From: Escherichia coli
Lineage (GTDB): Bacteria; Pseudomonadota; Gammaproteobacteria; Enterobacterales; Enterobacteriaceae
DNA length: 64,000 nt
Direction: 5' to 3' (one strand)
Assembly (NCBI RefSeq): GCF_044324875.1
Contig: NZ_CP172185.1
Position numbers and translations under genes: made by a program. Positions 5,410-6,000 of the stretch are shown here, piece after piece. Under the pieces are notes generated by a model that had not been told where the DNA came from, searched no databases, and saw only the letters and a program-made list of their open reading frames with translations. How positions within the stretch are numbered: the first letter of the stretch is position 1; each line of letters begins with the position of its first letter.

Positions 5410-6000
5410 ATGAACGAAGCCGTTAGCCCTGGTGCGCTTAGCACCCTGTTCACCGATGCCCGCACTCACAACGGCTGGCGGGAGACACCCGTCAGCGATG
5501 AGACGTTACGGGAGATTTATGCCCTGATGAAATGGGGGCCGACATCAGCTAACTGTTCTCCGGCACGGATCGTGTTTATCCGCACTGCAGAAGGAAAAGA
5601 ACGTCTGCGCCCGGCGCTTTCCAGCGGCAATCTGCAAAAAACCCTGACCGCGCCCGTCACCGCGATCGTCGCCTAGGACAGTGAATTTTATGAGCGGTTA
5701 CCACAGCTGTTTCCTCACGGCGATGCCCGCAGTTGGTTTACCTCCAGCCCACAACTTGCCGAAGAAACAGCGTTTCGCAACAGTTCCATGCAGGCGGCCT
5801 ATCTGATCGTCGCCTGCCGGGCGCTGGGACTGGATACCGGCCCGATGTCGGGCTTTGACCGTCAACACGTGGACGACGCCTTTTTTACGGGCAGCACGCT
5901 GAAGAGCAATCTGCTGATTAATATCGGCTATGGCGATAGCAGCAAGCTTTATGCGCGCCTGCCAGGTCTGTCCTTTGAAGAAGCCTGCGGGCTGTTGTAA
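5410..6000 (+). pseudogene. rutE: rutE (nitroreductase-like malonic semialdehyde reductase) interrupted by an in-frame amber codon at 5674..5676
   Basis: ORFs 5410..5676 and 5788..6000 are in the same frame and together span exactly the 196-codon length of RutE; the only break is TAG at 5674..5676, where RutE as I recall it has Trp (..[15 protein letters not shown]..). Confidence 0.85.

Follow-up and report, generated by a model that had tools for sequence, protein, structure and literature searches.

A recurrent amber codon at a former Dcm site interrupts rutE in an Escherichia coli genome

The window analysed in the present study is a continuous stretch of 64,000 nucleotides of Escherichia coli DNA, in which rutE is interrupted by one amber codon, W89*. 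The stop is a real allele, a single defined base change in a conserved gene and not a chance pattern, and unrelated rutE haplotypes have acquired it time and again. The comparison of reading frames and sequence contexts shows that rutE became a loss-of-function pseudogene through one G>A change at position 5675, which probably arose by deamination of 5-methylcytosine at a Dcm site. This explanation leans on the exact match of both the site and the change, together with prior knowledge, and we regard it as likely, though well short of certain. Events of this kind are well known, and RefSeq genomes already include annotations of precisely this lesion.

Interruption of rutE by an amber codon

rutE, which encodes malonic semialdehyde reductase of the nitroreductase family, occupies 5410..6000 on the + strand. 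Frame-1 translation of 5410..6003 gave 196 codons with one internal stop, in the order 88 sense codons, TAG at 5674-5676, 107 sense codons, and TAA at 5998-6000. The first-pass annotation had joined the open reading frames (ORFs) 5410..5676 and 5788..6000 into one frame totalling 196 codons, and both are listed exactly as it claimed. Its further claim, that a single amber TGG>TAG at codon 89 interrupts the gene, was borne out by alignment with strains NY1601 and K-12. When 5,426 complete E. coli genomes were compared, the closest rutE was that of strain NY1601, from which the window differs by two bases, 5675 G>A (TGG>TAG, W89*) and 5965 C>G (R186G). In K-12, codon 89 is likewise TGG (Trp), within the context GTCGCCTGGGACAGT. 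The amber codon is shared by public loci L007, L016, and L017, and R186G, a lineage-private change on the + strand downstream of the stop that creates a new CCAGG, was found only in these three loci and the window.

When Trp89 was restored, the RutE protein reached 319.9 bits with NF003768, the NCBIfam equivalog for malonic semialdehyde reductase, and covered profile positions 6-199 of 200; the curated cut-off of this profile is 152 bits as a whole-protein score. The predicted 88-residue N-terminal product (5410..5673, +) scored 136.5 bits, under the cut-off, and covered profile positions 5-92 of 200. The frame thus does not run uninterrupted through the full domain of the RutE equivalog, being broken by the TAG at codon 89. 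The first in-frame ATG past the stop is codon 127, from which a C-terminal ORF of 70 aa (5788..6000, +) begins; this ATG has no upstream Shine–Dalgarno sequence, and no in-frame restart with one was found past the rutE stop. The ORF is probably not translated. Judged by its reading frame and profile scores, rutE in the window is a pseudogene of the malonic semialdehyde reductase family and not a functional member of it, and deserves annotation as such.

The amber codon lies in a former Dcm site

The amber codon falls in a former Dcm site (5672..5676), where the ancestral CCTGG has become CCTAG. The ancestral context was gcCCTGGga, and CCTGG is present in K-12, NY1601, GN25, and every otherwise near-identical genome carrying TGG. 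Position 5675, the fourth base of CCTGG, lies opposite the inner C of CCAGG on the bottom strand, so that the G>A change corresponds to the C>T transition expected at a Dcm cytosine. It is, moreover, the sole rutE position at which a transition at a Dcm inner C yields a stop. A TGA at codon 89 needs a change at the adjacent G, which pairs with the unmethylated outer C, and was seen in one haplotype group.

The background on Dcm and very-short-patch repair is summarized in PMC9520237. In natural populations of E. coli and Salmonella, covering thousands of genomes, the inner C of CCWGG shows an approximately 8-fold excess of C>T changes (Cherry, 2018, J Bacteriol 200:e00371-18, as summarized in PMC9520237). 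Given an excess of this size, methylation would account for about seven of every eight transitions there. Considering these results, we propose the following scenario for the origin of W89*. The bottom-strand inner C opposite G5675 would be methylated by Dcm, and the resulting 5-methylcytosine would deaminate to T. If very-short-patch repair (Vsr, MutS, and MutL) missed the mismatch, the unrepaired T would be fixed as CCTAG, creating the amber at codon 89.

Codon 89 was found to carry a stop in 21 verified full-length loci, which fall into about 11 haplotype groups, all including TAG; among the matches listed, TAG thus occurs in at least 11 groups vs one for TGA. Haplotype groups were used as a proxy for independent origins, and the event counts, being drawn from 10 places per look-up, are lower bounds. 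For comparison, the transition-accessible stops elsewhere in rutE were examined in the same protein background, with one look-up per site and only loci with a real stop retained. Raw contig counts of short RutE products were dropped as a measure of event frequency, since most of the 'truncated RutE' entries of 75, 98, 108, 114, and 127 aa, and many of those of 88 aa, are genes cut by the end of a contig and not by a stop, and such counts overstate nonsense alleles.

With one look-up per site, W89>TAG was represented by at least 8 haplotype groups and W89>TGA by none among the matches listed. Among the matches listed for the other sites, there were at least 7 groups for W42>TAG, at least 2 for the Q99 stop, and at least 1 each for W42>TGA, W109>TAG, W109>TGA, and the stops at Q76, Q115, and Q128, with none for Q152. 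The pre-specified Dcm path, W89>TAG, thus had at least 8 groups vs a mean of 0.9 over nine ordinary paths (P = 6.5e-4), an approximately 9-fold excess that is itself a lower bound with 10 places per look-up; W42>TAG, with 7, stands apart from these nine. In its magnitude, the excess resembles the approximately 8-fold Dcm hypermutation in natural populations described by Cherry (2018, as summarized in PMC9520237). That study is genome-wide and statistical, whereas W89* concerns one site with a loss-of-function outcome.

Unlikely, yet the most serious of the alternatives, is that the stop is real and has a cause other than Dcm, either as an ordinary G:C>A:T change or as one of many loss-of-function alleles enriched because the loss of rutE brings no cost or is even favoured; its position in CCTGG would then be a coincidence. 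W42>TAG (AAATGGGGG>AAATAGGGG), which involves no CCWGG, is about as recurrent, with at least 10 real loci (L053-L062) in 8 haplotype groups and a ratio of 9 TAG to 1 TGA. Recurrence and a bias towards TAG thus do not by themselves prove the involvement of Dcm. The W42 recurrence may reflect a context hotspot, selection, or artefact; among complete genomes with the local haplotype of L053, none carry W42>TAG, and the equivalent codon in the window (5533-5535) is an intact TGG. G:C>A:T changes are, in addition, dominant among the lineage-private substitutions anyway (81 of 153), and rutE is broken in other ways in public data, by a slip in an A6 run in several hundred contigs and by stops at Q76, Q99, W109, Q115, and Q128. 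Against this alternative, the other seven observed nonsense paths show 1-2 events each vs at least 8 for W89>TAG among the matches listed, the neighbouring G>A at codon 89 that gives TGA is confined to a single haplotype group among the matches listed, and the inner Cs of Dcm sites are known for their excess of transitions.

A broader possibility, which we consider quite unlikely, is that rutE is a target of recurrent and possibly selected inactivation across E. coli, beyond one methylation hotspot. It would draw on the occurrence of W42 and W89 stops on about 8 or more backgrounds each, nearly always as TAG, and on an A-run frameshift that is commoner still. The −1 slip in the A6 run is the commonest public rutE lesion and gives 78-aa products ending in ...NLQKP, the variants of which were found in 361, 160, 42, 30, and 12 contigs, with complete genomes among them; some of these entries may be homopolymer sequencing errors. 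If recurrent inactivation were true, being without RutE would confer an advantage in certain niches; alternatively, W42 would be a new context-dependent G>A hotspot (TGGG, which on the opposite strand reads as a run of C and then A). In the window, the A6 run itself (5636-5641, rutE codons 76-78) is intact.

A second amber codon in rlmI

Deamination at the Dcm site, the preferred explanation for W89*, can also be considered in the light of a second stop. In rlmI (37176..38366, +), the gene of the 23S rRNA m5C1962 methyltransferase, codon 253 (37932-37934) is TAG in the window (Q253*) and CAG in all four reference genomes. The context is CCTAGG vs CCCAGG; within a CCAGG Dcm site, the inner C has thus become T, a change private to the window relative to the four references. 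A truncated RlmI of 252 aa was not found in the public protein collection, so that the codon may either be erroneous or occur in this isolate alone.

The nonsense codons in the window are only those of rutE and rlmI, and both are transitions at a Dcm inner C. The genes of the window contain 84 nonsense-capable Dcm positions, at which approximately 25% of nonsense mutations would be expected at the 8-fold rate; the probability of two out of two is 0.0016 if Dcm has no effect and 0.06 if it raises the rate 8-fold. A lineage-specific mutator affecting Dcm or very-short-patch repair was considered and found to be unsupported: only two of the 81 private G:C>A:T changes lie at Dcm sites, approximately 2-fold over target size, and, with P = 0.06 under the normal 8-fold Dcm effect, no repair defect is needed.

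In 1978, Coulondre, Miller, Farabaugh, and Gilbert reportedly found lacI amber hotspots at CCAGG Dcm sites. The rutE W89* allele is equivalent to those hotspots in chemistry, motif, and outcome, namely, a transition at the inner 5-methyl-C of CCWGG that gives TAG, and rlmI Q253* (CAG>TAG in CCAGG) is of the exact lacI type. In rutE W89*, however, the deaminated C would lie on the non-coding strand and Trp TGG is affected, in contrast to Gln CAG in lacI, and the evidence comes from natural isolates, whereas that for lacI came from a laboratory mutant collection. W89* would thus be a natural example of the textbook rule that in-frame CAG and TGG codons at Dcm sites are preferred amber positions.

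Authenticity and reading of the amber codons

Before any stop codon within CCWGG is accepted, the methylation artefact known from nanopore sequencing should be considered as its source. Older nanopore basecallers miscall 5-methylcytosine at a reproducible subset of CCWGG sites, which could produce a false TAG and could also mimic recurrence across strains. The TAG in rutE sits exactly on a Dcm inner C, as does the second amber in rlmI, the truncated product of which is absent from the public collection. Approximately 70% of nanopore consensus errors have been located in Dcm motifs (PMC6591954), the same approximately 28 nanopore errors recurred in 12 of 12 E. coli isolates tested (PMC8106442), and 93-98% of discrepancies between nanopore and Illumina data were at CC(A/T)GG (PMC6703438).

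For the window, however, this explanation is very unlikely. Contigs from two independently submitted sequencing runs are 100% identical to the window without indels, TAG and R186G included: L016 (which, like L007, is from SRR31072984) over 16,000 bp and L017 (from ERR14764776) over 9,862 bp. The exact 88-residue RutE product has, furthermore, been called on many public contigs. Across the window, 59 genes were checked and showed neither frameshifts nor gaps, unlike R9-era nanopore-only assemblies. Relative to the four reference genomes, 190 CCWGG sites are retained, and a transition is present at only two of approximately 380 inner-C positions, so that a basecalling artefact affecting Dcm motifs throughout the window was rejected. 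The other TAG loci differ from complete genomes by that one base in 3 kb and show no homopolymer errors, and current R10.4.1 models reach approximately 99% accuracy at CCWGG (PMC11610603).

The sharing of the allele with at least two other sequencing runs indicates that it is fixed in a clone. The first-pass annotation had described the lesion as a recent event; this is reasonable, but a brand-new origin is unsupported, since the allele is common to at least two other runs and is accompanied by the additional private change R186G downstream.

The presence of two amber codons within one 64-kb window might suggest that rutE remains functional through readthrough or suppression of its amber codon, for instance if a suppressor tRNA is encoded elsewhere. 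This is extremely unlikely. Wild E. coli rarely carry natural amber suppressors. No suppressor tRNA was found within the window, the sole tRNA gene of which is serT with a normal UGA anticodon; Dcm hypermutability by itself gives two ambers with P = 0.06; and the NCBI annotation pipeline PGAP handles the same rutE allele as a pseudogene.

Independent origins of W89* across E. coli

Any two of the haplotype groups carrying W89* are separated by 20-59 differences in 2.1 kb, and contigs with the same truncated protein are 2-3% divergent from the window in the surrounding DNA. Three further N-terminal protein variants were also found as real W89* truncations. Several carriers have close relatives with TGG among the complete genomes. 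L009, L004, and L003 each differ from the nearest such genome (OSUCMP42NDM, Ecol_316, and ST540, respectively) by one base in 3,001 bp, the G>A itself, and L002 and L006 differ from BCE049 and FDAARGOS_944 by three and four bases in 3,001 bp, respectively, including the G>A.

The first-pass annotation treated the stop as foreign to reference rutE alleles. Taken literally this does not hold, since W89 TAG is present in three of the 5,426 RefSeq complete genomes (PK5074, PSS-04, and PSJ-32-1); those alleles are, however, also pseudogenes, and the stop is thus recurrent and not a normal feature of rutE. Strain PK5074 (NZ_CP072802.1) came from urine in Pakistan and PSS-04 (NZ_AP027666.1) from faeces in Ecuador, and in both of these genomes, the two that were inspected, PGAP annotates rutE with an 'internal stop'. 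Both carry the identical W89 TGG>TAG change and, like the window, have rutC, rutD, and rutF intact as annotated. Their rutE haplotype is, however, of the K-12 type (phylogroup A-like) and approximately 40 sites away from the window in 2.1 kb, indicating independent origins.

The same 88-aa product on many backgrounds could in principle reflect a TAG that arose once and then spread between lineages by homologous recombination, but this is effectively refuted, and a single origin was rejected, because TAG occurs with both alleles at 5664 (11 bp upstream) and 5694 (19 bp downstream), which would require a transferred tract shorter than approximately 30 bp, and because three TAG loci equal their local TGG genome over 3,001 bp save for the base at 5675. 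Identical nonsense alleles in unrelated strains are thus not evidence of shared ancestry. A literature search for reports of rutE pseudogenes returned nothing relevant.

The rut operon around rutE

The rutABCDEFG operon spans 2411..7854 (+), with the same gene order in the window, K-12, and NY1601. The claim of the first-pass annotation that the remainder of the operon is intact agrees with our results, in that rutA, B, C, D, F, and G map full length onto the window without stops or gaps and their products each score over their own NCBIfam equivalog cut-offs. The divergent repressor gene rutR (1488..2123, −) is also intact by mapping, and its protein is 100% identical to that of GN25.

rutF has its own Shine–Dalgarno sequence, AAGGAG (5999..6004, +), 6 nt before the rutF ATG at 6011, and rutG is also preceded by a strong Shine–Dalgarno sequence of its own, so that translation of both genes would be independent of that of rutE. 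The stop would leave a ribosome-free stretch of 334 nt (5677..6010, +), the first part of which may, from its base composition, be a Rho entry region. Approximately the first 130 nt after the stop (about 5683-5815) are C-rich and G-poor, with a C/G ratio of up to 1.69 in 78-nt windows, whereas the operon averages 0.98 and has its 90th percentile at 1.39. No terminator-like site was found on the + strand within rutE. Polarity on rutF and rutG is possible but, given their own Shine–Dalgarno sequences, could come only from Rho acting over the 334-nt gap.

Among other strains, rutG is annotated as frameshifted in the complete genomes BCE049 and ATCC 11775, and in the matching W89* carriers L002 and L008 rutG is split and approximately 106 bp shorter, with rutA split too. 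The rut operon has undergone further decay in these four.

Predicted consequences of RutE loss

The reduction of malonate semialdehyde to 3-hydroxypropionate is carried out by RutE or, in vitro, by YdfG (PMC8113886). The predicted W89* product retains 88 residues out of 196 and covers under half of the nitroreductase-family profile, and RutE function would be lost with it. The dedicated step from malonic semialdehyde to 3-hydroxypropionate would then be missing, the Rut pathway probably being left without its last dedicated step, and growth on pyrimidines as sole nitrogen source would be expected to be impaired or lost. Partial compensation could come from YdfG or from a de-repressed NemR regulon, and rutF and rutG should still be translatable from their own ribosome-binding sites.

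For rutE deletion mutants of E. coli NCM3722 (Kim et al., 2010, as described in PMC3045373), the expected phenotype is an absence of growth with pyrimidines as sole nitrogen source, which nemR mutations can suppress. In those mutants, as in the window, RutE is lost while the other rut genes are intact. The NCM3722 alleles are, however, engineered deletions in an ntrB(Con) background (PMC3045373), whereas the window has a natural nonsense allele with a predicted phenotype.

Lineage-private changes and other features of the window

Compared with the four references, 153 substitutions are private to the lineage of the window. In the rut operon, five of them are non-synonymous, six synonymous, and one a stop, vs 18 non-synonymous, 91 synonymous, and one stop elsewhere in the window; the ratio of non-synonymous to synonymous changes differs between the two sets with a Fisher P of 0.035. 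The non-synonymous changes in the operon are rutA T215S, rutE R186G, and rutG F6L, N375S, and S380N. These counts hint that the operon may be under relaxed constraint, either in this lineage or generally. On the + strand, the private substitutions comprise 52 G>A vs 29 C>T, a strand asymmetry in G:C>A:T changes.

Between ompA and matP, at approximately 48189-48865, the window contains a segment of approximately 680 bp that is not in strain GN25 and that encodes an IS200-type transposase (MGNEKSLAHTRWNCKYHIVFAPKYRR...) at approximately 48332-48790 on the + strand. At approximately 25018-26528, cspH adjoins appA; the gfcABCDE-etp-etk capsule cluster, which sits between these two genes in K-12 and NY1601, is missing from the window, as it is in GN25 and C4.
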